From the IMG/VR virus record IMGVR_UViG_3300028549_002288: a DNA stretch of 23,407 bases; one strand, written 5' to 3'. This DNA comes from a virus. The notes under the pieces are model-generated. The model worked only from the letters and a program-made list of their open reading frames with translations. It was not told the DNA's origin and did no database searches. Every line of letters starts with the position of its first letter. Positions within the stretch are counted from its first letter, which is position 1. The translations under genes and the position numbers were made by a program. This document shows positions 1,286 to 19,804 of the stretch, in pieces.

Positions 1286-3334
1286 TTACATTTTCGTTGT
1301 AAATGCTTTGTATAAATTTGTTAGCGTCATGATCGCCATTATAGGAGTTGTATTGTGCATCTCGTAGCGTGGTCTGATGTAAGCCACTTTACCTATTCCA
1401 TTATTGTCCCTAATAGTAGGGACCACCATCGTAGGCGACGTGAGAGCGACTAATCCACTAAACGCTGTAACAGGTTCGTTTGGAATATCCGCAGATAGCG
1501 TAATGATTAATTTGTCTCTGAATCTTTTATCGATGAGGCCAGTTACTTGATAAACTTCAGTTTTTGTTTTTGAATTTATCGTGTCGATAATAGGCGCTAA
1601 CACTTTGGCGGTATGAGCATCGGATATGATTTTTACAATTGGAGTGGCATTAGCCTCATCTGCCAATCTTTCGGCAAATAGTGTAGAGATAATCATGTCG
1701 TCCACTTTCTTCGTCAAAAGCTCCTCTATCCATGTCCGTATAGATGTCCCAAGATCTTTCGTCTCATGGTTGTTTATTCTTTGCATTACATCGTACTCTT
1801 CTGATGTAAAGTAGTATCTTTCTCTAGGAAAGACTACGTTGTTTATAGTCAATGTGTTCTTAATGTTTGCTGGTTTGATTCCAGATTTTAACTGTGCTTC
1901 TATTTTTTGCACCAGTTTCAGTAATTTTTCTCTGAAATACTCCGCCCGAGCAAGTTTTACCCCAAGTTGAGTTTTTTCTACTTGTTTGGCAAAAGTTAAA
2001 TCTTCAGTTCCAGGTTCTGTCATGCTTCGTAGCAATCCCAAGGCTATAAATCCTGGTTTCCATCCAATCCCAATGAACCCTCGAGTACTTTCGGAATCAA
2101 GTATCGGACCGGTTTCTCTCATTCTGTCGTCTAGGACATTGTACAAAGGTTTGTACGACTGGAACTTGAGCTCTGCAATGAACTTTTTACAATCCTCAGT
2201 GAGCGGCATTTCGACGCCGTTACTATCGAACAGTACGCCCTTGACAGACATTTGCTTTGAAGTAAATAATCCACCCTTCAATGTACCTTCTACTATAATT
2301 CGAATTGAAATTCTCAATACATTAGAACCGAGCCATGCGGTGGCCGTGGAAACATTTCCATTAGCATCTAGCATATCTTTTACTAGGTCAAAACTAGGCG
2401 TGATATCTATCGCTACAGATGAATCCATACCAGCTACTGTTCCTGGAGATGTATTGTCTGGCGTATATTCTGTATCGACGGAGATAACGGATACCTTTCC
2501 TGCATCGGTAGGGTCTGTAACTTTTACGTTAATATTAGTTATTGATATATCTCGATCCAATTTGCTCAAACTGTCGTGTTCGTGGCCTTTGTTCAGAATT
2601 ACCTGTTCGTTCGCCAAGGTCAAGAAGTTTATTTGTGTATCTGCAAGAATAGGAGCGGTAAATTTACCTTCAATTAGCTCGTAGTTTGTTTTTAGCGACA
2701 AGTCTAATAGGTGCGAGTTCTTATCACTCACAATAATATCTACCCCGTTTCTTGTTAAATCGGTGAACCCGCGGTATTCGATTAAGTCATAGATGTTGAT
2801 TCTGTCTCTACTGTCCGTTCCGTACTCTTTTCGTACATCGTTGTTCTGTACATACGTAGTATAGTTAATTATCTCAATCCCACTCTGCTCGACTGGAAGC
2901 TGGATATGTTTAAATGCTTTTTCCAAAAACTCATCGGCTCTTAGATTTTCTTGAAATAACACGGCGAGATTAGCTGTTAAGTAATTCTTTAACTGACCTG
3001 CTGATTCGTTAGGTACCGAGCCTTTCGCCATGAGCACCAATTCATTATCATCTTTCCCGAAAGAAACACCGGTTGATAACTTGTTATGTATCATCGAAAG
3101 CATAATCGTGTTACGGCTAAATTTTTTATTTTTCTGATCATCTCCAAAATCGTAAGCGTCGTTGGCCATTCTCAACACAGCCTTATCTAAATACAATTCG
3201 GTCTCTTTGTCATTAACGAGATCGGAGAAATCCGCCCCGTGTTTACCCAGCGCAACTACAACTTCATTGTACCTTTCGGACGCGGTGGTGGCAACATCAC
3301 CCAAGTCGTAATTGTTCATTATCGCGTTGGTCAT
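1286..3334 (-). CDS. Major capsid protein, phiKZ gp120-like
   Basis: 682 aa; RADEFLEKAF and C-terminal RPRYEMHNTTPIMAIMTLTNL resemble conserved segments of phiKZ-type MCPs; strong terminator downstream; nvRNAP genes in the same window. Confidence 0.8.
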   Translation of the reverse strand: MTNAIMNNYDLGDVATTASERYNEVVVALGKHGADFSDLVNDKETELYLDKAVLRMANDAYDFGDDQKNKKFSRNTIMLSMIHNKLSTGVSFGKDDNELVLMAKGSVPNESAGQLKNYLTANLAVLFQENLRADEFLEKAFKHIQLPVEQSGIEIINYTTYVQNNDVRKEYGTDSRDRINIYDLIEYRGFTDLTRNGVDIIVSDKNSHLLDLSLKTNYELIEGKFTAPILADTQINFLTLANEQVILNKGHEHDSLSKLDRDISITNINVKVTDPTDAGKVSVISVDTEYTPDNTSPGTVAGMDSSVAIDITPSFDLVKDMLDANGNVSTATAWLGSNVLRISIRIIVEGTLKGGLFTSKQMSVKGVLFDSNGVEMPLTEDCKKFIAELKFQSYKPLYNVLDDRMRETGPILDSESTRGFIGIGWKPGFIALGLLRSMTEPGTEDLTFAKQVEKTQLGVKLARAEYFREKLLKLVQKIEAQLKSGIKPANIKNTLTINNVVFPRERYYFTSEEYDVMQRINNHETKDLGTSIRTWIEELLTKKVDDMIISTLFAERLADEANATPIVKIISDAHTAKVLAPIIDTINSKTKTEVYQVTGLIDKRFRDKLIITLSADIPNEPVTAFSGLVALTSPTMVVPTIRDNNGIGKVAYIRPRYEMHNTTPIMAIMTLTNLYKAFTTKM

Positions 3335-3364
3335 TTTCTTTTCCCTCTTTTTCTTTTTTTTTGT

Positions 3365-3856
3365 TTATGCATCCCGTTTAATCAAACGACACAATATCTG
3401 CACATCATTTACTTTTTCGTACAGAATATTGGCCAAATTAACTTCCAGCGGTTTACCATTCAAATAATAGTTTTTAATGGTCGAGTCAGCAACGCAGATA
3501 ACCACGTTATCGTTTTCGCCAACAAGTATATTTGTTATCTGATCTAATCCGTAGTGAGCAAACCTATCCAGCATTTTTTGCGGATATATAACATCGTCTT
3601 CCTGTTTATCTTCCTGATGTCTTTCTTTAAATTGGATAGTCTTATCAAGAAGCGTACTAAAATAATTAGTTAACAATTTAGTATGCGCTAAATCTACTTT
3701 TGTCAAAATAGAGCCTGTAGGTAGATAATCATACTGTAACAAAAAGCGTCGTGCTATATCAAACGGATCCGCTTTCGCCTCGACGATTCGTTCGTAGTTT
3801 ATAGCATCTAAAAATACTATATTTATCGAACCTACTTTGTATCCAATCTGGCTCAT
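3365..3856 (-). CDS. Hypothetical protein immediately upstream of the MCP
   Basis: 163-aa ORF, 4-bp ATGA overlap with the upstream gene. Confidence 0.7.
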   Translation of the reverse strand: MSQIGYKVGSINIVFLDAINYERIVEAKADPFDIARRFLLQYDYLPTGSILTKVDLAHTKLLTNYFSTLLDKTIQFKERHQEDKQEDDVIYPQKMLDRFAHYGLDQITNILVGENDNVVICVADSTIKNYYLNGKPLEVNLANILYEKVNDVQILCRLIKRDA

Positions 3857-4452
3857 GATTTTATATCGGTATTAATGAAATCCACGATCGTGGTTGCAAG
3901 GATTTCGTCTGCTGTCATCTTGCCGAATTTAGATCGTAACACCTCGGCCTTGGCCCATGTTTGATATCTTACCCTAACTACGGTGTCTCTTAAAACAGAG
4001 AGCTGACTTCCAGTAAGATTTATAATCATCCCTTCCGCTTTACCGTCGTCGGAAAGAACACCAACCTTTAATGTCTGTTCTGTCATTGTCGGGACCAAAG
4101 ATAGTGTCTTGGTAAGGACATCTTCCATTTCGCTACTAACCAATACTTTATACGGAACTGGTTCTTTAAAAGTCACGTATTCGAAGACTTTCTTCGCTTG
4201 TTGTTTTAAATAAGCAATTTTATCCTCTATAAGGCCGTTAATGTCGACCTCAGGGACATTCGTTTTCATCCATTCGGTAAACGTTTCTGTAATAACGGGT
4301 GGTATATTTTTGTCTGTAAAAATATACACATTGTCGTTTACGTAATATCGACGGGTCACTGTCCCGTCTTCGTTAGTCAAAAATAAAACTCTTACGTTTT
4401 TTATTTCGTCCTGTCTCACGTGTACTTCAAAAATTTCAAAAGCCATTGGCAT
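3853..4452 (-). CDS. Tail fibre assembly chaperone-like protein (DUF4376-like)
   Basis: 199 aa directly after the fibre genes; C-terminal pattern INLTGSQL...QTWAKAEVLRSKFGKMTADEI resembles DUF4376/Tfa proteins; AAGGA RBS. Confidence 0.55.
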   Translation of the reverse strand: MPMAFEIFEVHVRQDEIKNVRVLFLTNEDGTVTRRYYVNDNVYIFTDKNIPPVITETFTEWMKTNVPEVDINGLIEDKIAYLKQQAKKVFEYVTFKEPVPYKVLVSSEMEDVLTKTLSLVPTMTEQTLKVGVLSDDGKAEGMIINLTGSQLSVLRDTVVRVRYQTWAKAEVLRSKFGKMTADEILATTIVDFINTDIKS

Positions 4453-4493
4453 AATTCATCCTTTTCTTTTTTTTTCATAAAAATATTATTAAA

Positions 4494-6218
4494 CTACGGT
4501 AAAGCTCTTATTTGTTCACTATACCATTTTTTCGGAAACATCAGCAGATTGATACTTCTATATAATAACCACCCATTCGCGGAGTTGCAGTACGCGTGTC
4601 CCATTCCTTCGAATTTCCATTCGAACTTAGTCAAGTCTACAACATCTGTACATTTGATATGTAGTTCACTAGAACCAACAAACCCATACCTAATATCATT
4701 TACATAATCGGCATCCGGGGTCAAACCGCCACCGCTCGGAAGAGCTGGTGTTATTTCTTCAATTTTTTTAGTTAACATGTTATAACCATGTACTCCACCT
4801 GTCGATTCATTATAGCGCTGGTGTAAAAAAACTGAGTTGTTGATGTACTGATATGGATACCTCAACGATCTATCTAGATGGACGAGCTTCAGGTTCTGAT
4901 CTGTTGACTTTGCTATGGTGATATACGACACATCTGGTATCTCTATCGACTCCAGACATTTGAATAGTTCCACGTCGTAGAACTGTTTTTCTTTCTCTCT
5001 AGTTACACGTCCTGGATATAGAGCCAAATCGCTAACTTCCACGAAGTTATTAACTCCTTCCCACCACGCGACTGTTTCGTTAGTATCCATATTTAAAAAG
5101 TTTATTTTTAAATAATTTTCCGTACTTCTCCATGTCTCAGGACACGTCTTTAAGTCTATTAGGAAACTAACCTTCGTTTCTTGACCAGCTACGTGATCAA
5201 ATGAATATGTAGTCGTAGCCAACGTTTCTATATTAGGCTGGACATACGTATAGTTAACACCGTCTCTAGTTTCATTTGTTTCGTCAGGCACTATTTTTTC
5301 TATATAGTTCGTATCGAAGGAGTTCGTTCGCATTTTAATAACATATTTACCGGTTACGTTACCCTTAAATGTAAATTGTAAGGTCAAGAACTGTTCCGGA
5401 TATATCGACGATATATCTAATGCTCTGACCCTTACGCCGAACATCGCCAAGCTACCGGGACGCTTACCTTCAGCTGCCGGATCGGCGTAAACCGACCTGA
5501 TGCCGATACCATCGCCGTACGGGTCTGGCTTATAGAATAGTATATTTGCTCCGAAGTGAATTGGCAGATCGACACTAAATGTATCGAATATGTAAGCGGC
5601 ACCATAACCGACCCCGTCAGGAGAAAGCGTCATGACCTTTTCTTGATATAGGCTGTCTATGGATTTAAACGGCTCGTATTTCGAACTGATTGTTCCCATC
5701 TGATCTACATGGAACGCGGAGTTAATTATTAAATTACCAGTTCCGCTAGTATCAAGACCGTTAGGTCCCCTTTCTCCTTTTGCTCCTACGGAGCCTATTG
5801 TCCCATCCTTACCTCTCGTAATATTAATATATCCAATTTTATTCATTATCGTAATGAATAAAAGATCATTAACCATAGGAGTATAGTTAAGATGAACGTT
5901 CCTGTTATTCAAATTAACATTTACCTCTACGCCATCTACAATTATTTTCATAAGATTGGCTATATTTTTACCTAGACTATTAGAGACAAAGAAACCAATA
6001 GCCTTTAAATCGTTTTGGTTTACTTGTCCCGCCTCATGAGTTGAAATCTCGATTACGTTACTGGACGGGCTTTTATCCTCGTACACGACCTTTCTACTAT
6101 TTCCAATATTTATCCTCTCTACGCTGAGTCCTTTAGCATATAAAGGGGCTATTACATTATTAATAGCATTTATATCGTCGGCGTGTAGCGTATCGTCGAT
6201 ACTGAACTTCCTAATCAT
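4494..6218 (-). CDS. Tail fibre / receptor-binding protein, paralogue 3 (short collagen segment plus carbohydrate-binding-like domain)
   Basis: 574 aa; N-terminal DDTLHADDIN, (Gly-X-Y)7, NLIINSAFHVDQ, LTLQFTFKGNVTGKY and YDVELFKCLE resemble the fibre motifs NxIINGxF, TLSFxxKS and ELxxCxRY. Confidence 0.7.
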   Translation of the reverse strand: MIRKFSIDDTLHADDINAINNVIAPLYAKGLSVERINIGNSRKVVYEDKSPSSNVIEISTHEAGQVNQNDLKAIGFFVSNSLGKNIANLMKIIVDGVEVNVNLNNRNVHLNYTPMVNDLLFITIMNKIGYINITRGKDGTIGSVGAKGERGPNGLDTSGTGNLIINSAFHVDQMGTISSKYEPFKSIDSLYQEKVMTLSPDGVGYGAAYIFDTFSVDLPIHFGANILFYKPDPYGDGIGIRSVYADPAAEGKRPGSLAMFGVRVRALDISSIYPEQFLTLQFTFKGNVTGKYVIKMRTNSFDTNYIEKIVPDETNETRDGVNYTYVQPNIETLATTTYSFDHVAGQETKVSFLIDLKTCPETWRSTENYLKINFLNMDTNETVAWWEGVNNFVEVSDLALYPGRVTREKEKQFYDVELFKCLESIEIPDVSYITIAKSTDQNLKLVHLDRSLRYPYQYINNSVFLHQRYNESTGGVHGYNMLTKKIEEITPALPSGGGLTPDADYVNDIRYGFVGSSELHIKCTDVVDLTKFEWKFEGMGHAYCNSANGWLLYRSINLLMFPKKWYSEQIRALP

Positions 6219-7849
6219 ACGAATATCTCCTCTTTACCTTTGTTTGTGTACAAAGTATCCTTGCCTATGCCTGCTAAATCAGTATAATATACGAAAGCGT
6301 GTTGTCTTTTAACGGAGTAGTTTAAACTATTTCCAAGCGCCACCGACCCTGTTGTAAGTGGATAGATATGGTGTAGGTTACCTAAGGTCGCTGGGTCTAG
6401 AATATACTTGGTCGCCTTAGACCAAGTGTTATGCGGTTCTACTAAATCCGGATACGTGTCGTTCCAGAAAGTCGAATTGCCTATATAGCTTTGTAAAATA
6501 CCACTTCGAGGTCTATATTTTCTTATAGGCAAATCTAATACAACGGGCTGTGACGCGATGACATTAAATATCCTGAACGGTCGTATAGGTTCGATGTATC
6601 GCTTTACAAGATCCGTATCTTCGACGTAAGAACGCCATTTATGTTCGGACATCGGCACTGAAGTAAACGACAATTCGCTAAAGTTAAGCGATATCGCTAC
6701 AGGGTCTATTTTCGACCAATCTTTTAAACCGGAGATTGTTCTGTCTAAAACAATACCTCTAACTGTTGATGAAGAAAGCTCGTGTTTAACTCCTTCCTCC
6801 ACAATTTGTCCTGAGGAGAGCGTACATAACTGCACATTAAACCTGACACCGCTTTCCGGTTCGGCATATGCCGACCTTGTCACTGGAAAAGGTATAGAGA
6901 ATTTCTGCTCTTTATTTTCCGCAAGTCCGTTCTCGTACGTAAATCTCTTGATAATATACTCGCCGGTTACGTAATCGATAACTATGGCTGCGTAATCGCC
7001 GTTGGTGTTACCGCCGTTCTTTGTTCTCACTTCAAAAGCAAAATTTAAATAAAGCGTGTCGAACCAAGGCGTAGCCGTTACGATATCTGCCTCTCTATTT
7101 AACTCCACGTGTTGAGATATTGGAATTACTGTTTTTCCTACAGCCGGAGAAGTACCAGCTTCTAATCTGAAACAGTAAACTCCTCTGTTGCCCTTTAGAA
7201 ACGGAATGTCAGATTCTCTACTATAAAACGCATTTCGCAACGCCTTTAATTTTATATTTAGCGAAATGTCGTTTGAGTATGTAAAGAAACAATCCGCTCC
7301 ATACGCGAGCAATTCACCTTTTCCGTTATCTTTTAATACCTTTATAGGTACGTGGTCCAGATGCGCTGTATCCTCAAGACGGAGACCGTTGATTAATCTG
7401 TCGACATTACCCAAAACCCGGCCTCTATAGCCTCTTTCCCCGTATGGAGCTTTTTCTCCGTCCCTGCCGTCTTCACCTACTGTGTTTTGCACTATGGCAA
7501 ATTTATCACCGTTTCCAGATGTGTATAGGGTAACAATGTACGTTCCCGTACTGTTCTCTTTGAACGGCCTTGAGTCGCTCATCGTTATCCTGTACGGAAT
7601 TCCGTTGAATAAGACTATTGCGTAGTTTGATAAGCTTTTACCTAATGGTAAAGTCAATGCTACAACTGTCTTGTCAGGAACCGTGTTACCGTACGTATCA
7701 GTAATTACTATCTCGGCATCTTCAAACTTCACAGCTGGAATATGAAGTGCTGGATTAATATCACTATCTTCCTTTAAAAAAGAAAGTATTCTGTTCATAT
7801 CCTCAGCCGTCAATGTGTCGCCGACATGATCGATTTTGTGTTTTAACAT
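6215..7849 (-). CDS. Tail fibre / receptor-binding protein, paralogue 2
   Basis: 544 aa; GDTLTAEDMN, GEDGRDGEKAPYGERGYRG, RLING, RSYVEDTDLVKRYIE. Confidence 0.7.
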   Translation of the reverse strand: MLKHKIDHVGDTLTAEDMNRILSFLKEDSDINPALHIPAVKFEDAEIVITDTYGNTVPDKTVVALTLPLGKSLSNYAIVLFNGIPYRITMSDSRPFKENSTGTYIVTLYTSGNGDKFAIVQNTVGEDGRDGEKAPYGERGYRGRVLGNVDRLINGLRLEDTAHLDHVPIKVLKDNGKGELLAYGADCFFTYSNDISLNIKLKALRNAFYSRESDIPFLKGNRGVYCFRLEAGTSPAVGKTVIPISQHVELNREADIVTATPWFDTLYLNFAFEVRTKNGGNTNGDYAAIVIDYVTGEYIIKRFTYENGLAENKEQKFSIPFPVTRSAYAEPESGVRFNVQLCTLSSGQIVEEGVKHELSSSTVRGIVLDRTISGLKDWSKIDPVAISLNFSELSFTSVPMSEHKWRSYVEDTDLVKRYIEPIRPFRIFNVIASQPVVLDLPIRKYRPRSGILQSYIGNSTFWNDTYPDLVEPHNTWSKATKYILDPATLGNLHHIYPLTTGSVALGNSLNYSVKRQHAFVYYTDLAGIGKDTLYTNKGKEEIFV

Positions 7850-7850
7850 C

Positions 7851-9521
7851 TTATCTTAACCTCCCGTCATAGGCTATTTTATAGTCAATCCCATCGCCTA
7901 TTCCTACTCCAACTGAGTAAATACATTTTGCTGTACTATGCTGTGAAATTTTAGATCTAATCTTGAACCCGTACAGCTGGTGTTCTACTGAATCACCATT
8001 CGCCAAATACGTGCCGGTGGACTTTAACGTTCCGGATGTCGACGCAGCAAGAGAATAAATCCAGTAGCATTTGAACGGCGATGTGTCAAATTTATTTGTC
8101 TCGAAGACAATATTGTATTGTTTTGAAAACTTTGGTAGCCTGAACCTCACAGGGATCAAACCATCTCCTGTATCCTCGGCTAGTCCATTACTTACACCTC
8201 GAAGATAAGGACCGTAGCCACTTATTCCTTCGGACGAAAGAATATTTTCATAGTACACCAATGCTCTTACAGCGTCAATAGCATCTGTCTCTATCGATGT
8301 ATAATTAAAGTTGCCGTATTCGTTTAAAGCGGGTATCCTCTGTTCCATATAGCCAAAGTTGGTAAGTCCTGGACTTACAATTTCAACGCTTCCGCCTAAC
8401 TTCATATACTTCACGGCGTCTGGCGATAAACATGTTTTATTATCAGTTACTCCGTACATGTTTACATCTAACGGGTCCGAATAACAATGTCCTGTGCCGT
8501 CAAATGTCGGGGCGATGGCTACTTGAATTCCCCTTACGGAAGTTCCATCTAATGAAATATCGCTATTGTCTCTTATCGATAGTGGCTTATCAGCCACCGT
8601 GTCGTATATTGGCAAATATACCGCCATATAACCAGATACGTGTTCCGATGCTTTATACACCCAACTACGTTTTACTACTGTCTGTCTATTAGGCTTACCA
8701 AATCTCACAACGGCATCGTATTTTCCGTCGATGCTGGCTTTGAAGATAAACGATAAATACATCTTGTCGTCTCTTGCCAATAGATGACAGGCAATTCTAT
8801 TGTGAATCGGATGAACGAGTCCCGTGTTGATGTAATTCGTTGACGTTTCAACAGCTTTGTCTGCGTTAATTGTCAAACTTTGTGTAAAATTATCTGACCC
8901 TTTCCTCACAGTATACGCTACTGCATTTCCGATACTTTCGTTATAATAACCGTCGCAGATATAAATATCATTCAGTGTATTCGCCCCTGGCGGTCTTGTC
9001 TCTCTTGTCTTGAATTGCGTGATATTAAACGAACTGTTAAACATATAGTTCAACCTATCGCTAGTATACTGCTCAAACCCGATCGGACCATCTAGTCCCT
9101 TTGGTGAATCTTTACCGTCATAACCGCTCGGACCGTTTAGTTTTTTAATAGAAACAGCCCCGTCGTTTACTTGTATCGATAGGAGATCGCTAAACGAAAA
9201 TTTTGTGGATGCTATGCTGTGCTGAACCATATCCTCTTCATGAATAAATATAAGAGAATTAATACTTGCACTATCTTTGCCGTACATATTTTGTAAATCA
9301 ACAATAATGTTGAAGGGTCCGTCCGTAATTGAAACTCCTGATACTATCGTCATTGTAGAACCGACAACACTAGAAACAACACCCACATTGGATAACGATT
9401 CCATCTTCTTTTTGAATAAAATCTCACTGGCTGTATTGCCCAAGGTGTTTAACGGCTCCACAATATCTTCGTTTAATATATCGGAAGTGAGTACATCACC
9501 TACTTTAATGTCTTTCGTCAT
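7851..9521 (-). CDS. Tail fibre / receptor-binding protein, paralogue 1
   Basis: 556 aa; GDVLTSDILN, GPSGYDGKDSPKGLDGPIG, NYMFNSSFNITQ, YLSFIFKASIDGKY. Confidence 0.7.
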   Translation of the reverse strand: MTKDIKVGDVLTSDILNEDIVEPLNTLGNTASEILFKKKMESLSNVGVVSSVVGSTMTIVSGVSITDGPFNIIVDLQNMYGKDSASINSLIFIHEEDMVQHSIASTKFSFSDLLSIQVNDGAVSIKKLNGPSGYDGKDSPKGLDGPIGFEQYTSDRLNYMFNSSFNITQFKTRETRPPGANTLNDIYICDGYYNESIGNAVAYTVRKGSDNFTQSLTINADKAVETSTNYINTGLVHPIHNRIACHLLARDDKMYLSFIFKASIDGKYDAVVRFGKPNRQTVVKRSWVYKASEHVSGYMAVYLPIYDTVADKPLSIRDNSDISLDGTSVRGIQVAIAPTFDGTGHCYSDPLDVNMYGVTDNKTCLSPDAVKYMKLGGSVEIVSPGLTNFGYMEQRIPALNEYGNFNYTSIETDAIDAVRALVYYENILSSEGISGYGPYLRGVSNGLAEDTGDGLIPVRFRLPKFSKQYNIVFETNKFDTSPFKCYWIYSLAASTSGTLKSTGTYLANGDSVEHQLYGFKIRSKISQHSTAKCIYSVGVGIGDGIDYKIAYDGRLR

Positions 9522-10492
9522 TGATCGTCCTCCTTAATGATTGTTATCGGTAGCTTGACTGGTAAGAAATTGTCAGAAGTGTTTACAGTGTTGATAACCA
9601 AATATTCCCACGGTTTTTCATAGTGCGATATATAAGGCTTAATAGCCAACAGGTATGTTCTACCTTCTTCTAACAATGATACAAATTTTTGTATAATTTT
9701 AGTTTCATCGTTAGTACTGCCAGCATATACCTCGCTACCATCAAGAGTCAATCTTACTTCGAATTTAGTGGATAGGTAAATGTCCTCTATCATAAAATCC
9801 TCCGTATTATCATCTAGCACGACTATGTTCTCAGTCTTAGTAATAGGCTTAACATATCTACCACCTGCCGTGATAAACTCAAACGACGATGCGTCGCTAC
9901 TATCACCGGACGTGCTTTTGAAAATAGCCTTTACTTTATAAAGACGGTTTTTATCAAGAACAATCTTTGTAAGGTCGAAATACCCCATATTGTTCTTATC
10001 CTCGATAACAGAATGAATGACTTTATCGCCAGAATCTAAAAGAAAAAGAGATACGTCGTTCTTTTTTCCGTTACCGTTCACTTCAAAGCCACTTATGTTT
10101 ATTTTAAACTCGGTATGCGGATGGGTTGTTAACTCGTATGGCGAACTAATCGTCGGTCTAGCGACTAACGACGGGACCGGAATATTTATTACACTATTCT
10201 TCTCCATTATACTTTTTACGTCAATCACCTGGGCCGATTCAGTGGTCGGCATCTCTATTATGTTGCCGTTCGCATCTATACCTACGTTAAGTATAAATCT
10301 AACCTTGACAACATATTCTTTTTCTGGGTAATAGGGTATGTCGCTAAACACAAGCCTGCTGTTAGTGGACATGTCACCCGGGTCGCCGGACTTTTGCAAT
10401 ATCGTTGCAAAATTATCAATACCTAGTTTATACTCTACCCTCAGTACGGGGTATCGAGCTACTACTTTAGGTATATTAGAAAAAAATTTCAA
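9518..10492 (-). CDS. Beta-sandwich (Ig/FN3-like) putative virion protein; paralogue of 20173-22041
   Basis: 324 aa, TTG start with AAGGAG RBS; beta-strand-rich; shares a domain with the 622-aa protein. Confidence 0.55.
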   Translation of the reverse strand: MKFFSNIPKVVARYPVLRVEYKLGIDNFATILQKSGDPGDMSTNSRLVFSDIPYYPEKEYVVKVRFILNVGIDANGNIIEMPTTESAQVIDVKSIMEKNSVINIPVPSLVARPTISSPYELTTHPHTEFKINISGFEVNGNGKKNDVSLFLLDSGDKVIHSVIEDKNNMGYFDLTKIVLDKNRLYKVKAIFKSTSGDSSDASSFEFITAGGRYVKPITKTENIVVLDDNTEDFMIEDIYLSTKFEVRLTLDGSEVYAGSTNDETKIIQKFVSLLEEGRTYLLAIKPYISHYEKPWEYLVINTVNTSDNFLPVKLPITIIKEDDQ

Positions 10493-10564
10493 CTTACACT
10501 CCTTATTTTTATATCAATTAATAAGGTACCTAATTGCATTTGCATAAACGTGAAAAAGTAAGCG

Positions 10565-10604
10565 GTAAATAATCACGAGGGAATATTCCCTCGTGATTAT
10601 TTAC
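10565..10604. terminator. 40-bp perfect palindrome overlapping the stop codon of 10597-11295; probable terminator
   Basis: GTAAATAATCACGAGGGAAT|ATTCCCTCGTGATTATTTAC. Confidence 0.7.
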
Positions 10605-11295
10605 ATTTTTCACTATCAACCATACCTAAGAACTTTTGTTTTAGCTTTTCAGCCTCCGCAGCGTCCTCGAAGCCGGGAAATTTCTTGGGTGACGAAAATG
10701 GAAGACCTTTTTTTTTATTTTCTTTGCTTGCCGATGTCGTGATCATTTCGGCCAATTTCGTGTACGCCGCTAACACGTGATTATGTGCTTCCGCTGATGC
10801 GTAAATTCTGCTGATTAATAATTCTTTTTCGGTTAATGTTTCTACTTTAACAACATCCGCATTTGCGATTATCGCGGTGAGTACCTGCAACTGTTCGTTA
10901 TTTTTTGACTTCTTATCGAAAACAAACAACTCGACCAACTCGACCAACTCGACTTTTTCGGTGATATTCATTTCGTCGTTTGTTCTCACGGCGCATCCGG
11001 AATATTTCTTTAATAGAATTGATTCTGCTATGAAGCGTAAGAAGCATTCACACGGCGATTCTAAGTCTATGGAGTCGACGAAAACGCCGTTAATAAAAGA
11101 TACTTTCAACATAACTTGCTTATGAGGATATTGTTCGAAATTCATCGTCACTGCTTCTTTATCGTCTTTAAGTAAGGTTATATACCCAATCTCGCTATGG
11201 TTAACAGTGATGCCGACTATTTGCTGGTTCTTTCCGATATGAATTAAAAAATCATTACTTCCGAGCTCAAGACCATATTTTACTACATTTGTCAT
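10597..11295 (-). CDS. Hypothetical protein
   Basis: 232-aa ORF with AAAGGA RBS, flanked by a promoter-like motif and a palindrome. Confidence 0.75.
   Translation of the reverse strand: MTNVVKYGLELGSNDFLIHIGKNQQIVGITVNHSEIGYITLLKDDKEAVTMNFEQYPHKQVMLKVSFINGVFVDSIDLESPCECFLRFIAESILLKKYSGCAVRTNDEMNITEKVELVELVELFVFDKKSKNNEQLQVLTAIIANADVVKVETLTEKELLISRIYASAEAHNHVLAAYTKLAEMITTSASKENKKKGLPFSSPKKFPGFEDAAEAEKLKQKFLGMVDSEKCK
10927..10953. repeat. 9-bp tandem repeat (CAACTCGAC)x3 encoding VELVELVEL
   Basis: Three exact copies read directly. Confidence 0.9.
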
Positions 11296-11332
11296 TATTA
11301 TCCTTTATTATATGTCATATAACAAGCGTATG

Positions 11333-11373
11333 AAAAAAAAGATAATAATGACAAACCAACCGGTTTGTCATTA
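11333..11373 (-). terminator. Intrinsic terminator after the 288-aa gene
   Basis: 12-bp stem TAATGACAAACC/GGTTTGTCATTA (11346-11373), then T8 on the minus strand. Confidence 0.85.
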
Positions 11374-11376
11374 CTG

Positions 11377-12243
11377 CTAGTAGACCGCAGGTGTTTCGTT
11401 TACTGGAAGAATTGTCCCGGTAAGGTTGAAAACAACGCCGTTCGTAATCGTTTCACCCGGAGCAAGCGTGAAATTCAATTTGAAAGGATCAGCATTATCC
11501 ACTTGCGCAAGCGCTGTGTATAGTGTCCCGTCATTTGAAATAATCCAGCAATCTCCAGTATCTAGAACAACACCGTCGTAGAGGTCTCGCGATGGCGAAC
11601 CTACCTCATACAACAATACAGATGGTGTGTTCGTAGGGGTCGCGCTAACGATTTGTTTTGTAACAGCAACGTTATGGTCGATAACTATATTGATGATGTT
11701 CCTGATATAGTTGAACGCATCGACTTTGGTATCGTTTATGGTTTCAAAATCGTCGAGGCGTTGAGCTAACGGTCCAATTTCATTTTCCACCATCAGATTG
11801 TATTTTTGATCGGCATAAACCCGTGAAGCATTCGCCATTGCATCAATTTCACCTTTATTTTCATCAATGAAATTTTTCATTTCCAAGAACGTATCGGCAT
11901 CTATTGCAGCACCTTCGGTCAAAACATTAATTGCCGCGTCGGCGATCTCTTTTGCAATGGTATGAACAGAACCTACGGCTCCCGGGGCTGGGTTTATGAG
12001 TGTAGAAATATGTCCCATATATTCCGATTTTAATTCGGCTTTCATCGAACCTAGCGTGCTAGTTAAAGGACCGGCTGGTAGTTGATCTGTTAGGATGTCG
12101 AATTTTGCCAATAGCGAATTTGACGCGTTGTTAACGCCGTTGATGCTCGAATTAAGTGCAACGATACTGTTTTGTACTGCTGGGAATGCGCTGAGGTCGA
12201 GTTTAATTCGTGATGCGGGTGTGTATTCTCCAAAATGTCTCAT
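11377..12243 (-). CDS. Hypothetical protein, possibly virion-associated (helical N-terminus, beta-rich C-terminus)
   Basis: 288 aa, AAGGAG RBS, own terminator. Confidence 0.7.
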   Translation of the reverse strand: MRHFGEYTPASRIKLDLSAFPAVQNSIVALNSSINGVNNASNSLLAKFDILTDQLPAGPLTSTLGSMKAELKSEYMGHISTLINPAPGAVGSVHTIAKEIADAAINVLTEGAAIDADTFLEMKNFIDENKGEIDAMANASRVYADQKYNLMVENEIGPLAQRLDDFETINDTKVDAFNYIRNIINIVIDHNVAVTKQIVSATPTNTPSVLLYEVGSPSRDLYDGVVLDTGDCWIISNDGTLYTALAQVDNADPFKLNFTLAPGETITNGVVFNLTGTILPVNETPAVY

Positions 12244-13010: not shown

Positions 13011-13078
13011 GTTTATCCTTTTATTTTATTATCAAGTAAAAAGGCTTATGAACTATATTAGACGTATAACCGCACGAC

Positions 13079-13233
13079 GGCTACCCCGTAGCCTTACGTA
13101 CCTGCTGTTCCGTAGGAACAGAGAAGTAAGCATAGAGGGAGGCCGTAGCCTCCCTCTATGCTTATATATAATATATATAGTAATAATATATTATAATTAA
13201 CCCCTTAGCCTAAACCCCCTCCCGGGAACCCGG
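13079..13233. other. Structured intergenic element: hairpin cluster plus AT-rich tract (candidate origin or structured RNA)
   Basis: Hairpins at 13079-13093, 13105-13121, 13127-13164 (17-bp stem) and 13222-13233; 13162-13200 is 38/39 A+T. Confidence 0.5.
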
Positions 13234-13292
13234 TCGGTATATTTTATCTCTTCATATAATAGGTTTTTTAAAATAAAAAAAATACTTATTTA

Positions 13293-13324
13293 TACGGACA
13301 TCTCGTTTAAACGAGATGTCCGTA
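13293..13324. terminator. 32-bp perfect palindrome centred on the stop codon of 13307-13678; probable terminator
   Basis: TACGGACATCTCGTTT|AAACGAGATGTCCGTA; T-rich tract follows on the minus strand. Confidence 0.7.
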
Positions 13325-13678
13325 CTTTAACTTCATGTAGATATGAAGTACCGCGAGGTTATAAACGACCTCGTCCTCCTCGCATTGGTACAATAAACAT
13401 TTGTCTATTTCGTCCAAGGTCTCCCCTCCTTTTTCGTAAGGGTTCAACGAATGACCGTCTTGTATCGCCAACGAAAATTCCTTATCGTCATTGTACATAT
13501 CATTGTAAAATTTGATAAGTTTATAATTATAGAGATAATCTCTATAATTACGAATCTTTGACTCTTGTTTTATAAACTCGGAAATTAGTTCCGAGTTTAC
13601 TCCTCCATTCTCATTTACTACGTCTCTGTCATGCGACGGGACGAAGTTTTCTTTCCCTGCTATCAAAATTTGTAACAT
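13307..13678 (-). CDS. Hypothetical protein
   Basis: 123-aa ORF with GAGGA RBS. Confidence 0.7.
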   Translation of the reverse strand: MLQILIAGKENFVPSHDRDVVNENGGVNSELISEFIKQESKIRNYRDYLYNYKLIKFYNDMYNDDKEFSLAIQDGHSLNPYEKGGETLDEIDKCLLYQCEEDEVVYNLAVLHIYMKLKYGHLV

Positions 13679-13712
13679 TTTTTCCTCTTTGATTTATTAT
13701 ATGCGAATAGAG

Positions 13713-15626
13713 TTATTTTAAAAGCATATCTTCCGTAGGATGCGGATCCTTCCAGTTATTATAACTGAACGAACTCGCAAGGAAAGAGTTTAGCTGTCCT
13801 AGCACCATACTTACGTATATGTTGCTCATATGCAATTTCCTCTTGTAGTTGCCTATAACTCCGCCTTCTTCGTTTGTTAAAATAGGCTTTTCGTGGTCAA
13901 CTACATATAGCGATTTCACAAGAGTACTGACTATCGAAAAAGGTATATACATCTTCTGCGATAGAAACGCATGTAATTCCCTAGTCAAGTCATCTTTCGA
14001 CATATTCGTCGACGCTGCCGATATCAACATGGCGCTCAATTCGTCGGGCACCGTCTCGTATGTCATTCCTAAATTAGGGAATATCAAAACAGGTATCTTG
14101 ATATTATTTGTCAAGATATTATTGAGATATATCTTATACGTCGTGGAGTTGGCCGTTATTATGTTTCCGTATTTAGCCATCATACGTAACATGTATACCG
14201 AGAAGTGGAGGTTTTTAGTCTTTGACGTGGCTAGAGACAGTTTAATTTTCTCTGTCTTTCCTGTGTTCATGTGAGTGGACACAAGCATAATTGTCGAAAT
14301 ATTACTATAGGTACTTTCGTCCCTATTGTTATAATTCTCAAACAGCTTCATGTCTTTTATCCTAACATGAAGATGGTAATTATATTCGTCCAGATTGAAA
14401 ATTTCTGGACGAAAGAACAGCGTGCCATTGGCTATATAAAAGACATAATTAGCTGTTTCGTCCAGAATGTGCTTTTCGAGCTTACTACTACCAACAAAAT
14501 GTTTCGTCTTCAAAATAAATTGCGTCACGTACTTCACAAAATACTGTGCGCAATACACGCCAATATTACTGTCTTCCGGTACGTTATCTGACAACTCGCC
14601 AAAACACGTAGAGCATATATGTCTCGGGTTTGGCGATTTGCACGACGCGGGTAATCTAAATTTAAGCACCTTACCACCATGACCACGCCACTGATCACTT
14701 TCAAACAACTCAAGCTGTTGGTTTTTGAATAAAAACCAGTTGCCTTGAAGAGAATCTATGTTTCCGCTGACTGTATCGGAATTATCTACAAGCTTTATCT
14801 CTACGTAGCTCTGACTCCCGCAGTCGCCTGGGATGATTTTATTCATAAACATCATCAATAGCTTCATCCTTTTTCCGAAATCTTCGGATTTGGCTATCGC
14901 ACCGTTTTTTGTCATTTGCGCCTTAATGTTCGTATACGCATCGGCGACAATTGTATGCAAATCCATCGCGCCGAGTACATAACTAGTAGCAATAGGCTTG
15001 CTTAAGACTATATTGCTTAAGTTCTGTCTATATCCTAACGGACCAACTGATTGCTGAAATTGTTCCCTATTGATCGAATTTGATCTATAGGCGATGCCCA
15101 GTGGTGTATCGGCATATCTAGTCAGCATTAACTTATCGACAGTTCGTCTGCTTGTCTCGACAGCTTCCGGGGAATGGTCTGTATATATAGCCTCTATGGA
15201 AGCTGTAATGTCCTTATCTTTTTGGATCATGACGGCATCCACAATATCTACAGATAATCCATATTCTTCAATATAGAACGAGTTATTGTAGAGAGCTGAT
15301 TTAGCCTCCATCAAAGCCTCAAAGAAATCAGCTTCCTGAAGACGGTATTCTATATTACGAAAATAATATCTGACGATGCGAAACATCGCTTCATTTATTG
15401 CGTTTTCGTCTAGGAAGTCGCCTTTGAGATGACTGTCTATTAAATACTCTTTTTTTGGAGCTATATTAAGTCTATAACACAGTTCCCAAATCGGAGCATT
15501 TATAGATATGCTTTTTCTATGTAGGACCACGTCCTCATTTTCTATTCTCACCGAATGATACCCGGTGAGAGAATCTTTTATTTTTTCAAAATCTATTCTC
15601 CATAGAACGAGAGGGTCAAATACCAT
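13713..15626 (-). CDS. rpoC: Non-virion RNA polymerase beta' subunit, C-terminal part (phiKZ gp74-like)
   Basis: 637 aa; bridge-helix-like IAKSEDFGKRMKL, DCG, Zn-site CKSPNPRHICSTCFG, trigger-loop-like TQFILKTKH; no DxDGD, as expected for the C-terminal fragment. Confidence 0.88.
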   Translation of the reverse strand: MVFDPLVLWRIDFEKIKDSLTGYHSVRIENEDVVLHRKSISINAPIWELCYRLNIAPKKEYLIDSHLKGDFLDENAINEAMFRIVRYYFRNIEYRLQEADFFEALMEAKSALYNNSFYIEEYGLSVDIVDAVMIQKDKDITASIEAIYTDHSPEAVETSRRTVDKLMLTRYADTPLGIAYRSNSINREQFQQSVGPLGYRQNLSNIVLSKPIATSYVLGAMDLHTIVADAYTNIKAQMTKNGAIAKSEDFGKRMKLLMMFMNKIIPGDCGSQSYVEIKLVDNSDTVSGNIDSLQGNWFLFKNQQLELFESDQWRGHGGKVLKFRLPASCKSPNPRHICSTCFGELSDNVPEDSNIGVYCAQYFVKYVTQFILKTKHFVGSSKLEKHILDETANYVFYIANGTLFFRPEIFNLDEYNYHLHVRIKDMKLFENYNNRDESTYSNISTIMLVSTHMNTGKTEKIKLSLATSKTKNLHFSVYMLRMMAKYGNIITANSTTYKIYLNNILTNNIKIPVLIFPNLGMTYETVPDELSAMLISAASTNMSKDDLTRELHAFLSQKMYIPFSIVSTLVKSLYVVDHEKPILTNEEGGVIGNYKRKLHMSNIYVSMVLGQLNSFLASSFSYNNWKDPHPTEDMLLK

Positions 15627-17676
15627 TGCTTTCTCCTTGCTGGTCTCTTACTACCTCAACACCATATAGCTGTAGTATTATATTAAGTCTATCGACAGAC
15701 AAATCGTGCAACTTTGTCTTTTGTCTATCAACAAGCTTTTCGTGTACATCTTCCGGCTTATCTAGCATAGTATAATACATTATATTATAATAATCTGGCG
15801 ACGACATTCTTGTTATGACTTCTCTTATATCCATAGGCTCAGTTTCCTTTGCCCAACTATAGAGAAGTATCGTCTCCTGTTCGGATAAAATTCTAGGAGC
15901 CGCCCTCGAGAAGCTGTCGCTATATTTCGTGGCCTTCACATTCGGTGCCGGTTTTCCTTTTGGTTTCCAGTAACAAGCCGCGCCACCCATGCATTCGTCT
16001 GGGGATTTGGCCAAAAGCGAAAAGTATACAGGAAATACAGAAACGTTGAATTTAGACATTTTCTTCTTCCCTTTTACTGTCATTTCGATTGGCTCTTTTT
16101 TAAGAGCAAGCTCGCTTTCTTCAATCCTAAGTACCTTTTCCGCATTTATGTCGTTCACGTCGAACTCCAAAAGTGTGGAAAATTCCATACGTTCCGCAGC
16201 AGCGACTAATATTGTTTTTGCCGCATGGTTGTTTTCGATAGCGTCTAGCCTCGCTATTGACTTTTTTACTCCGAGTAGCTCTATATGCCTGTATATTATA
16301 TCAAAAGCCTCATCTACAGCCCTACGGCCGTTTCCGTACATGTTAATATGATCTCTCACTCTTTCATTACATGTTTCGATAAACCTTTGGAAATATGCAT
16401 CATACATAACACCGTAGTTTTGACGCGAAGTAACCGCACCGTGGTAGATGATTATATCCACGCCTTTTGGCATTTCGTCATCCGGCGCTACTCTTACTAT
16501 AATCCCCTTTCCCCCATATCTGTTAGATTCTTTCGCTCCTATGTACGGAGTCGTTCTGAATTTAACCGTTACTTCCGCAAAATAATGCGGAAGTTTTTCA
16601 TCACGCATTAATAGCGTCCGGCCGTCTTTGGGCCCTTTAATACGAATCATAGCGTCTAACGCTATTTTCCGAAACTCAGCTGATAAAAGGTCGCTTTTAC
16701 CTTCGCGTACATACTTGTCGTGTACGTCTAGAATACTTTTAAGATAGTTCTCCTCGAGTTCAGCATAGTATTCTATCTGTTCGTGAATATCAAGATATCC
16801 GACATTTTTATTAGTCTTCTTCGTTTGACTAATCGCCATAATGTCAATAACCTCACTATAATCCGCCAACATACCAATAATTTGTGCGGATGTATTCTCG
16901 CAAAACTCATTTGTTTCCAAAGAACTTTGCAAATATTCTACAAGTTTATAATCTTCCCTGGGCGTCTTTACTGAGAAGATAACTTGATCCTTACGAAGAG
17001 AATCTCCTATGTCGGGCAGTGGCTTGCCGTCGTTGATTGGCAATACTATATCCTTAACGTTTGCTTTAAGAACAAACTTTCTGATATAGTCAAACTGTTG
17101 TTTTTTAACAGCAGATTCGGAAACGACAATGCCGTCTTCGTTATTGTCGTTTGTATTCATAAACGCAGCTTTTAACAACACGCCGTCTCTATATCCTTTT
17201 CCGTCAGGATCTGATGGAATTCTTGTGAGAGCATCTCCTTCTCTATATACATCTCCGGGCCTGATATTAATTCTTTCGTGTTCAACACCGTACTTACCGT
17301 TGGTAGACGTGTACGGGATTATTTCCCTACCGCTAATCATTCCATTTGCATGGAAAGTAATGAATGTTTTCATTACTTTCTTTTTGTGTTTTTTAATCAC
17401 GACGTCGAGGACTATCATATCCTCATCGGCCGTATGATTAACCATGTTCTTAGCCAAAGGAATTTCCAATCCAGTGAATATGTATGGAAAGTCCGGATTA
17501 CATAAAATGGCGTTTGCTCCGGCAGTTGATCTTATACCCATGTTAATACGAGCCGGAGATGTGTTCGGCCAGCCGGGCACATACCATTTGAATCCAACGA
17601 ATTCTTTCGTTATTTCGATTGCTTCAGGGTCTCTTTTTATAATTAACCCCTGAACAACATTGCTGGTTTTTATCAT
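15616..17676 (-). CDS. rpoB: Non-virion RNA polymerase beta subunit, C-terminal part (phiKZ gp71-73-like); start revised to 17676 (686 aa)
   Basis: NNEDGIVVSES, GAKESNRYGGKGII (both conserved lysines), DDEMP, VDII, SRQNYG, PRILSEQE; AAAAGGA RBS before MIKTS. Confidence 0.9.
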   Translation of the reverse strand: MIKTSNVVQGLIIKRDPEAIEITKEFVGFKWYVPGWPNTSPARINMGIRSTAGANAILCNPDFPYIFTGLEIPLAKNMVNHTADEDMIVLDVVIKKHKKKVMKTFITFHANGMISGREIIPYTSTNGKYGVEHERINIRPGDVYREGDALTRIPSDPDGKGYRDGVLLKAAFMNTNDNNEDGIVVSESAVKKQQFDYIRKFVLKANVKDIVLPINDGKPLPDIGDSLRKDQVIFSVKTPREDYKLVEYLQSSLETNEFCENTSAQIIGMLADYSEVIDIMAISQTKKTNKNVGYLDIHEQIEYYAELEENYLKSILDVHDKYVREGKSDLLSAEFRKIALDAMIRIKGPKDGRTLLMRDEKLPHYFAEVTVKFRTTPYIGAKESNRYGGKGIIVRVAPDDEMPKGVDIIIYHGAVTSRQNYGVMYDAYFQRFIETCNERVRDHINMYGNGRRAVDEAFDIIYRHIELLGVKKSIARLDAIENNHAAKTILVAAAERMEFSTLLEFDVNDINAEKVLRIEESELALKKEPIEMTVKGKKKMSKFNVSVFPVYFSLLAKSPDECMGGAACYWKPKGKPAPNVKATKYSDSFSRAAPRILSEQETILLYSWAKETEPMDIREVITRMSSPDYYNIMYYTMLDKPEDVHEKLVDRQKTKLHDLSVDRLNIILQLYGVEVVRDQQGESNGI

Positions 17677-17702
17677 GTCTATCCTTTTAAAATTATTCAC
17701 TA

Positions 17703-17716
17703 GTATAATATATGAA
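17703..17716 (-). promoter_or_regulatory. Putative early-type phage promoter TTCATATATTATAC
   Basis: Identical to 1223-1236; about 27 nt upstream of the nvRNAP beta start. Confidence 0.6.
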
Positions 17717-17775
17717 TAAATTTTATTACAAACTATAAACATAACTTTTAAATGAAATAAAAAAAAGGACGACTG

Positions 17776-18549
17776 ATGAAAAAAATATTGTTTTTTTTGA
17801 TTTTAATACTATCTATTGGGTTCGGTAATGTTAAAACTACTTTACCGAAATTGGCAAACGATTATATACCAATTATATATGAGGAACAACAGAGGTTATG
17901 GAAAGACTTCAAGTATGTGTTCTTCCTATACGGACAGGTAGAGCAGGAGACCTGTTACAGTATGACTCATAAGAAGTGCTGGAACCCTAAGGTATATTTT
18001 CGAGGAATGAGGAATGGGGTAGTAGTCGAATTCGGTGGTGGTTTACCACAAGCGACAATGGCGGCTAGAGCCGTAAGGTTACCGAACGGCAGGTTTGTAC
18101 AAAAAATTAGATTTGATGCATTATCAGATCTGAAGATATCGTACCCCAGAGAACTGTCTGAGTTAACATGGAATAACCTTGCTAATAGACCAAGACTGCA
18201 AATTGTTTTTCTAATTTTAAAAAATAAACAGAACTGGGAACTTACTAGAAAGTACGCCGTTGACGATTTTAACGGCATAATGTTTATGTTAGCCAGTTAC
18301 AACGGGGGTGTCGGTGGACTTAGAAGTGAGATAAAGAGATGTATGAAGACACGAGGTTGTAATTCTGGCGTCTGGTTTGGTAACGTAGAACGTGTCGTGA
18401 TGAAATCACAAAAAGTTTTATGGGGTAATAAATCGCCATACCAAATAAACAGAGAATATGTATTTAACATCACCAGAGTAAGGGTAGAGAAATATATACA
18501 AAACCATCTTAGTAGAGACAATGACTATGAGTATGTAAGTGAGAAGTAA
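17776..18549 (+). CDS. Lytic transglycosylase (SLT / lysozyme-like fold) with N-terminal signal peptide; probable endolysin
   Basis: GQVEQET (candidate catalytic Glu), GGGLPQ, MLASYNGG, INREYV motifs; MKKILFFLILILSIGFG leader; AAGGA RBS. Confidence 0.85.
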   Translation: MKKILFFLILILSIGFGNVKTTLPKLANDYIPIIYEEQQRLWKDFKYVFFLYGQVEQETCYSMTHKKCWNPKVYFRGMRNGVVVEFGGGLPQATMAARAVRLPNGRFVQKIRFDALSDLKISYPRELSELTWNNLANRPRLQIVFLILKNKQNWELTRKYAVDDFNGIMFMLASYNGGVGGLRSEIKRCMKTRGCNSGVWFGNVERVVMKSQKVLWGNKSPYQINREYVFNITRVRVEKYIQNHLSRDNDYEYVSEK

Positions 18550-19069: not shown

Positions 19070-19804
19070 TTAATCGAAGACCCTTCGGCCTATTAATAAT
19101 TCCCTCTTATATTTTTCATATAGTTTTTCAGGAATATTATTCTGTTTTACGAACGCGTCAAGCGTCATTTCGCTTTTCTTATATCTAGTAACATTGTCTT
19201 TTTTCGACGTCAACGAGTCGGGTGTCCTATTCCATCGGTACGACACTACGTCAGACATTGTAACCTTATACCCGCGATATAAAACACCTAACATAAAACA
19301 CACATCTGTATGAAAGGACCCACCCTCTACGAACGGTAGTTCTATCATGATATCTCTTCTACACAACATGCCGTTTATGACAGCCCTGTTCCTTCTGATA
19401 AGGTTAACAATCGTAGGCTTCAACGGCATATTTGTCCCTATCCCCGCAAGCCATATATCTCCACTAAAATTATCAGGAAGATGCAAAAGCATATCATCGT
19501 GATCTAGCTTGCATATATACGTTGACGTGGCCGATCTGGTTCCTATATTACTTGCTCTAGCGTCTGAACCTGATGGTGACAAATCGTGTTCGTATCCGTT
19601 AGATACGAACACGATTTCGTTTTCCGACGAGATTCTTTCGGCTTCTTTGATAAACAAAGAAAGATCGCCCTTCTCATTTAACGGTCCGTCGTTGACCATA
19701 ATGATTTCTCTCGGTTCTTGGAAAACGGCCGACAATAAACACTTGCGTAATGTAATTATATCGGATCTGCATGTTGTTATGACAACAGACACATCCTTTT
19801 TCAT
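19070..19804 (-). CDS. Glycosyltransferase family 2 (GT-A fold)
   Basis: DVSVVITT, CLLSAVFQ, EIIMVNDG, ARASNIG, YICKLDHDD (DxD), D-x-x-F and YRW...SLT motifs. Confidence 0.88.
   Translation of the reverse strand: MKKDVSVVITTCRSDIITLRKCLLSAVFQEPREIIMVNDGPLNEKGDLSLFIKEAERISSENEIVFVSNGYEHDLSPSGSDARASNIGTRSATSTYICKLDHDDMLLHLPDNFSGDIWLAGIGTNMPLKPTIVNLIRRNRAVINGMLCRRDIMIELPFVEGGSFHTDVCFMLGVLYRGYKVTMSDVVSYRWNRTPDSLTSKKDNVTRYKKSEMTLDAFVKQNNIPEKLYEKYKRELLIGRRVFD

Follow-up and report, generated by a model that had tools for sequence, protein, structure and literature searches.

Three adjacent putative fibre genes with short collagen-like stalks upstream of the capsid gene of an uncultured phiKZ-like phage

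The viral record IMGVR_UViG_3300028549_002288 of IMG/VR is a stretch of 23,407 nucleotides (nt), analysed here at its whole length and called the window throughout, in which nearly all genes of the open reading frame (ORF) list lie on the minus strand. The subject of this work is a row of three adjacent genes, A, B and C (Table 1), which an earlier reading of the letters alone (the original prediction) had described as tightly packed, coupled genes for fibre proteins of 556, 544 and 574 amino acids (aa). The ORF list and the translations bear out these sizes, and the packing is as described: ATGA overlaps join B to C and the gene of a 324-aa protein to A, and A and B are 1 nt apart. Every fibre start is preceded by a strong Shine-Dalgarno sequence that lies inside the preceding gene, and the fibre genes are translationally coupled. 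Near the N-terminus all three proteins carry the expected (G/D)DxLxxxxxN motif, at residues 8-17 in A, 10-19 in B and 8-17 in C. The common architecture that had been proposed, with an N-terminal domain (N-domain), a short collagen-like stalk and a head, also stands, in what are three old paralogues; the label of carbohydrate-binding given to the heads does not, as it found no Pfam or PHROG family match, and it is a guess. Pfam gave no match to CBM_4_9 (PF02018) in A, B or C, and this name appears as a minority annotation (22%) of one neighbour cluster in the ESM Atlas (scores 0.85-0.86).

Table 1. Features of the fibre locus and its surroundings in the window, with the corresponding proteins of the one relative and their identity to those of the window.
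Feature	Position	Strand	Description	Counterpart in the relative (identity)
Fibre gene A, 556 aa	7851-9521	-	N-domain 1-129, collagen-like stalk 130-150, head 151-556	P0011 (39%)
Fibre gene B, 544 aa	6215-7849	-	N-domain 1-124, collagen-like stalk 125-145, head 146-544	P0012 (38%)
Fibre gene C, 574 aa	4494-6218	-	N-domain 1-135, collagen-like stalk 136-156, head 157-574	P0007/P0010 (34%)
Stalk of A	9072-9134	-	7 triplets, Ser replaces the 4th Gly (Ser-Pro-Lys)	
Stalk of B	7415-7477	-	7 triplets, Ala replaces the 4th Gly (Ala-Pro-Tyr)	
Stalk of C	5751-5813	-	7 triplets without interruption	
324-aa protein	9518-10492	-	TTG start, Shine-Dalgarno sequence before the TTG; translationally coupled to A	P0014, 321 aa (52%)
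199-aa protein	3853-4452	-	41 nt downstream of C; also encoded by the relative	P0013, 194 aa (32%)
163-aa protein	3365-3856	-	4-nt overlap with the 199-aa gene; just upstream of the capsid gene	Syntenic 180-aa gene
phiKZ-type major capsid protein, 682 aa	1286-3334	-	PF25620, E 1.8e-24, 86 bits (cut-off 27); phrog_3231	Capsid protein (28-30%)
Split RNA polymerase beta-subunit genes	13713-15626, 15616-17742		phrog_3015, E 9e-60; phrog_3295, E 2e-67	
Hairpin	10565-10604		Perfect 18-base-pair stem, 4-nt loop; separates the 232-aa and 324-aa genes	

Each stalk is a run of seven Gly-X-Y triplets. A six-frame scan of the window returned exactly the three runs listed in Table 1, where they had been predicted, and no other Gly-X-Y run. 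The replacements of the fourth Gly are likewise as reported: A has a TCA codon for Ser and B a GCT codon for Ala, each with Pro (CCA) next, and Gly is kept in C, which therefore has Gly in register in all seven triplets, A and B each having it in six. Runs of this quality rarely arise by chance, since a stretch with at least six of seven Gly in register was present in 5 of 20,000 shuffled A, B or C proteins, a figure that is approximate because the shuffles were drawn from alignment rows containing gaps; in the window they occur three times at the same relative position. The Collagen model of Pfam (PF01391) is not among the matches of A, B, C or their orthologues, for which no family was returned at E ≤ 0.1, because seven triplets are too few for the model.

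A direct BLASTP comparison of A, B and C gives alignments limited to the collagen stretch. Profiles made from two sequences reach further, with A and C aligned over the whole of the N-terminal 175 residues (E 6.1e-5) and B and C over residues 68-153 (E 0.006). The heads have only two short strand motifs in common, an Asn-x-x-x-Asn-x-x-Phe strand just after the stalk and a second one ~90-110 residues further on, and are otherwise not detectably alike by sequence; insertions and deletions (indels) separate the heads and also the N-domains of the paralogues. As judged by the profile links of A and of B with C, the common head motif and the kinship of the C head with tail fibres (see below), the paralogy of A, B and C is real, though very old, so that the claim of three paralogous fibre genes holds.

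An exhaustive HMMER search with C through 1.8 billion proteins retrieved P0007 (34% identity, E 1.3e-88) as the only relative of full length. Two metagenomic proteins, P0008 (E 6.5e-6) and P0009 (E 4.5e-5), are partial relatives that align over residues 246-441 of C. P0007 is encoded on contig DZCE01000002.1 (locus L001; 66.6 kb, 35.5% G+C), which belongs to a metagenome-assembled genome (MAG) from a sulfidic cave labelled Arcobacter nitrofigilis; this placement is either a hint at a host among the Campylobacterota or a binning artefact. The genes of L001 run from RNA polymerase beta through three small genes and a 321-aa gene (5691-6656) to A' (577 aa), B' (530 aa) and C' (588 aa), which together span 6669-11767, and on through genes for 194 and 180 aa to the capsid gene (13016-15148). 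Gene order is the same in the window, and the three fibre genes are matched by exactly three one-to-one orthologues. It had been suggested that the number of paralogues be counted in relatives, and the only retrievable one (n = 1) has three, in the same order, an outcome that favours the original prediction. A hidden Markov model of the six N-terminal parts likewise detects neither more nor fewer than three copies in the window, and the same number in the MAG of the relative. In a tree of these parts the orthologues pair up, with support of 99/99 for the B pair and 88/92 for the A pair, which places the duplications before the split of the two phages.

Between the two phages, the heads are 35-39% identical to their orthologues and the N-domains 24-33%. 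The stalk is the best-conserved part of each fibre, with 43-57% identity as compared to 24-39% elsewhere, and its run of triplets occupies the same position in all six proteins. Gly is in register in six of seven triplets in A', five in B' and six in C'. At the fourth triplet A' retains Ser-Pro, B' retains Ala, with Ala also at the third, and C' retains Gly, with Ala at the seventh. What both phages conserve is the pattern at the fourth triplet, non-Gly in A and B and Gly in C; a count of exactly seven perfect triplets is not conserved. A and A' both encode this Ser with a TCN codon, from which Ala is one step away and Gly two, as would fit a passage through Ala. The Ser/Ala-Pro shared by A and B was considered as a mark of sister paralogues and dropped, since the tree of N-terminal parts puts A nearer to C than to B; for the same reason, a single inherited change at the fourth triplet cannot be asserted.

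None of the six fibre proteins matches a Pfam family at E ≤ 0.1 or a PHROG at E ≤ 0.01. The partial relatives of C, P0008 and P0009, match the C-terminal part of PHROG 4492, annotated as tail fiber protein (E 5.8e-25 and 1.7e-40, respectively), and the C family aligns to them in hhalign with 94% probability (E 1.4e-7). By way of these two proteins, the head of C (residues ~246-441, a central region) is homologous to tail-fibre proteins. A and B align weakly to the same head motif (E 0.014 for A and 0.0064 for B, in single comparisons), and strands of the Asn-x-x-x-Asn-x-x-Phe and Ser-Phe-x-Phe-Lys...Gly-Lys-Tyr types found in PHROG 4492 tail fibres recur in A, B and C. The likeness stops there: A, B and C have no direct match to a PHROG model, and P0008 and P0009 have neither a collagen stalk nor the shared N-domain.

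Structural comparison adds a few leads. In the ESM Atlas, A and C have viral clusters as neighbours, annotated as collagen, tail-fibre, CBM_4_9 or Mtd_N, at scores that make them leads only. An AlphaFold2 model of A from a two-sequence alignment was unusable, with a predicted local distance difference test (pLDDT) of 30; for the N-domain, an alignment of six sequences yielded a model with a helix and then about six strands, at a mean pLDDT of 55. Foldseek with this N-domain model returned nothing from the PDB at E ≤ 0.001. The top fold match of the N-domain model of C is the third bead of gp47, the homotrimeric tail fibre of phage Pa193 (PDB 9b45, PMC11456595), in which each chain adds a four-stranded sheet (Z 5.3 over 86 residues, root-mean-square deviation 3.5; next best match Z 2.9). 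There is no sequence similarity between the two, a Z of 5.3 is below the level for claiming fold identity, and, as the model is of low confidence, the match is a lead only. Searches of PDB sequences with A, B, C, P0008, P0009 and the alignments A10 and A11 found nothing meaningful, and no Pfam C1q match, as would mark a gC1q/TNF-like head, was found in A, B or C. The assignment of the three gene products as fibre proteins, probably of the tail, has reasonable support.

On balance, A, B and C are probably three kinds of separate homotrimeric fibre, each made from its own chain. In the arrangement that we infer, a chain would open with a beta-rich N-domain of ~125-135 aa, whose initial short helix carries the GDxLTxxDxN-type motif and which could serve for attachment. 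It would continue in the seven-triplet collagen-like stalk, ~6 nm long if helical, and end in a beta-rich head of ~400 aa, probably a jelly-roll, that begins with the Asn-x-x-x-Asn-x-x-Phe strand and contains the second motif common to tail-fibre tips. Each chain would form its own homotrimer, and the particle would carry three short kinds of fibre with three different, presumably binding, heads. The homologous N-domains may dock the fibres, probably to the tail or baseplate, and the mid-stalk non-Gly residue of A and B could act as a built-in hinge or weak point.

Several observations speak for this reading. The heads of the paralogues are undetectable to each other by sequence as compared to 35-39% identity with their orthologues, which makes them three distinct and separately constrained heads, and divergent heads under separate constraint are the pattern of separate fibre sets. 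Collagen-like phage fibres that have been studied form trimers on their own and may contain a conserved interruption. One such fibre is EPclA, a side tail fibre of an Escherichia coli O157:H7 prophage: expression of this protein by itself is enough for trimerisation, and an interruption of Gly-X-Y is conserved in its family (PMC3368898). EPclA, which has a collagen triple helix between globular end domains, resembles A, B and C in this layout; it differs in that its collagen domains are much longer and match Pfam Collagen, and in its coiled coil and PfN/PfC domains, none of which was found in A, B or C. FibU (gp68) of Staphylococcus phage 80alpha likewise combines an N-domain, a short collagen-like segment and a C-terminal knob in the product of one gene (PMC7048315). 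Its attachment domain at the N-terminus is beta-rich and ~120-170 aa long, its collagen-like segment is predicted at residues 178-208, and its knob is of unknown fold; it is a peripheral, accessory baseplate fibre beside the paralogous fibre FibL, which has a related N-domain (PMC7048315). Unlike A, B and C, which form a trio with heads of ~400 aa, FibU is a single gene with a head of ~180 aa; no sequence similarity was found between them, and the BppU-like/Ig-like fold of its N-domain was not recovered for the N-domain of A, B and C.

Other observations weigh against separate homotrimeric tail fibres, in different parts of the reading. The fixed number, order and coupling of the trio and its Ser/Ala pattern are also what is expected of a mixed, C1q-like fibre. 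Identity between the phages is higher for the fibres (34-39%) than for the capsid protein (28-30%), and within the fibres it is higher for the heads than for the N-domains, which is the reverse of the usual pattern for a receptor-binding protein. The cluster is flanked by RNA polymerase genes and the capsid gene and not by recognisable tail genes, and this makes the placement on the tail weak. Finally, proline is low in the stalk segments (one to three in each) and B' has two adjacent non-Gly triplets, so that it is uncertain whether the segment is a real triple helix.

The position of the cluster, directly upstream of the capsid gene in both genomes, raises the alternative that A, B and C are homotrimeric fibres of the capsid, neck or "whisker" type, or decoration proteins, encoded together with head genes. 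No tail or baseplate gene is recognisable within ~10 kb, and the heads are conserved to a degree unusual for determinants of host range. However, the sole sequence link of any of the heads is to annotated tail fibres, the best fold lead for the N-domain is the bead of a tail fibre, and the mixed gene content around the cluster makes the neighbourhood a weak guide. We consider a location on the capsid or neck improbable, if the best of the alternatives to the tail-fibre reading.

The original prediction had proposed that A, B and C may co-assemble 1:1:1 into one fibre with three heads. Wound into a single short collagen stalk, with a kink at the fourth triplet where two of the three chains lack Gly, such a fibre would resemble C1q. 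The genes of the three C1q chains lie side by side, and an irregularity in two of these chains falls at the kink. The A, B and C chains of human C1q provide a precedent of three paralogous chains in which a collagen-like region precedes a globular head, with heterotrimeric helices and heads and a kink in mid-stalk (PMC5902488). The gene arrangement of the window is C1q-like in this respect, as it consists of three adjacent paralogues with collagen parts equal in length and position, and the relative has the same. Both known genomes thus contain exactly three such paralogues, arranged in one order and with translational coupling of the genes, and at the fourth triplet the non-Gly residues of A and B and the Gly in C have been kept across phages whose capsids have diverged as far as noted above. 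All this is in agreement with a mixed helix. C1q differs, on the other hand, in that it has been shown to be heterotrimeric and has gC1q/TNF heads; the phage stalk has only about a quarter of the C1q length, and a hydroxyproline system is absent.

Common descent alone, however, gives stalks of equal length and position, and several features of the chains speak against a mixed helix. In a rough charge-pair score, which sets favourable against unfavourable contacts for all 27 chain orders, no ABC register scores well in both phages, and in the window AAA and CCC are equal to or better than any ABC register. With the substitution in two of three chains, the core of a heterotrimer would still be disturbed at two consecutive levels, and other Gly positions drift chain by chain (the third triplet in B', the seventh in C'). 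Heads and N-domains so divergent, with indels, that their similarity lies at or below what can be detected are also a poor fit to a pseudo-threefold interface. A complex prediction with the N-terminal parts and stalks of A, B and C scored 0.19, with the mark at 0.32, and is evidence neither way. A heterotrimeric fibre shaft is not known from phages, which we count against this proposal. With an inconsistent charge-pair score, diverged heads, non-Gly in two of the three chains and a collagen-like fibre, EPclA, that trimerises alone in spite of a conserved interruption, the 1:1:1 heterotrimer gained no positive support, and we regard it as a distinctly unlikely structure.

The possibility that the Gly-X-Y run is a short Gly-rich linker between domains rather than a triple helix, with the oligomeric state set elsewhere, agrees with the small number of triplets and prolines, with a run below the Pfam Collagen model, with the two adjacent non-Gly triplets of B' and with the loss of the last Gly in C', but it finds little credence with us, as the Gly register is the best-conserved stretch of the proteins, recurs at the same position in six of them, is far above chance and has counterparts in comparably short collagen-like segments accepted in other phage fibres (PMC7048315).

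Collagen-like stalks in phage fibres are known and paralogous fibre sets are common, and on the likeliest reading, that of three homotrimeric fibres, A, B and C make up an orphan family, ordinary in kind, within a very deep phiKZ-like branch. Three features are worth keeping: a trio fixed in number and order across two phages with capsid proteins less than 30% identical, fibre heads that are more conserved than the capsid protein, and a mid-stalk non-Gly residue that two chains retain and the third never has. Were the mixed helix to prove true, it would add to the rare heterotrimeric collagen-like helices that occur naturally outside animals and would be a phage analogue of C1q, in which the conserved Ser/Ala at the fourth triplet of two chains would be a programmed kink. 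Three binding heads on one fibre would then be a compact arrangement of interest for fibre engineering, and the locus is small (5 kb and one candidate helper gene).

Two genes frame the trio in both phages. The 324-aa protein is the best-conserved of the cluster between the phages, with 52% identity as against 28-30% for the capsid protein, and stands above any fibre. Searches of Pfam, PHROG and PDB sequences gave no match to it, and its description as Ig-like could not be substantiated, as there is no family match and no internal repeat by BLASTP. A scheme in which the protein would contain three internal repeats, one per fibre, was dropped on the same BLASTP result. The protein may be a fibre adaptor, or an attachment or docking partner. 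The 199-aa protein had been called chaperone-like, and only its size and its position after the last fibre gene resemble a chaperone; it has no match in Pfam or PHROG, for example to chaperones of the lambda Tfa or Caudo_TAP type, and its sequence matches in the PDB are weak and unrelated. Its gene is a candidate helper gene. The hairpin ahead of the 324-aa gene is the strongest terminator-like structure within 3200-11500 and probably marks a transcript boundary ahead of the fibre block.

The capsid gene is the next gene block downstream of the fibre cluster. Because it encodes a phiKZ-type protein and the RNA polymerase beta genes are split, the window phage is assigned to the phiKZ-like jumbo phages, of which it is, on the evidence of these genes, a very divergent, deep-branching and uncultured member. 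In a tblastn search, the RNA polymerase subunit matched 177 jumbo phage records, all at less than 25% identity and at ~22% for cultured jumbo phages; the capsid protein found no match by tblastn among 50,697 phage records. Among sequencing runs, the locus occurs in one DNA run, a microbial-mat metagenome, with no RNA run listed, and this mat is probably the source sample of the phage.

Other searches added no further relative. Among 401 genomes of the order of the relative, a search returned only the one MAG. Megablast with the locus and tblastn with the capsid protein, C, A and B gave no match in the phage database, and no relative appeared in scans of IMG/VR with A, the capsid protein, P0007 and the alignments A4, A5, A6 and A10, or in Joint Genome Institute (JGI) metagenome scans with the alignments A2 and A10. 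In a word-index homologue search, A and the capsid protein returned only themselves, and the C-family alignment returned three weak, short matches that did not include P0007. Blanks from this search mean little, since it missed the 39%-identical P0011 and also P0007, which is present in the same collection; collagen words may crowd its candidate list, and blanks are weak for queries that contain Gly-X-Y.

Some further genes of the two phages deserve mention. The sole sizeable gene on the plus strand of the window (17776-18549) has a weak endolysin match (phrog_669, E 5e-6), and the 244-aa protein of 19070-19804 (minus strand) matches glycosyltransferase family 2 below the threshold (E 0.002, 18.5 bits with a cut-off of 23.3). 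The gene after the capsid gene matches phrog_7727, of unknown function, in both phages (140-1195 on the minus strand of the window, 15172-16326 in L001). The next gene in L001 is polymerase-like (phrog_2943, E 1e-24), and this succession beside the capsid gene indicates that structural and replication genes are interleaved.

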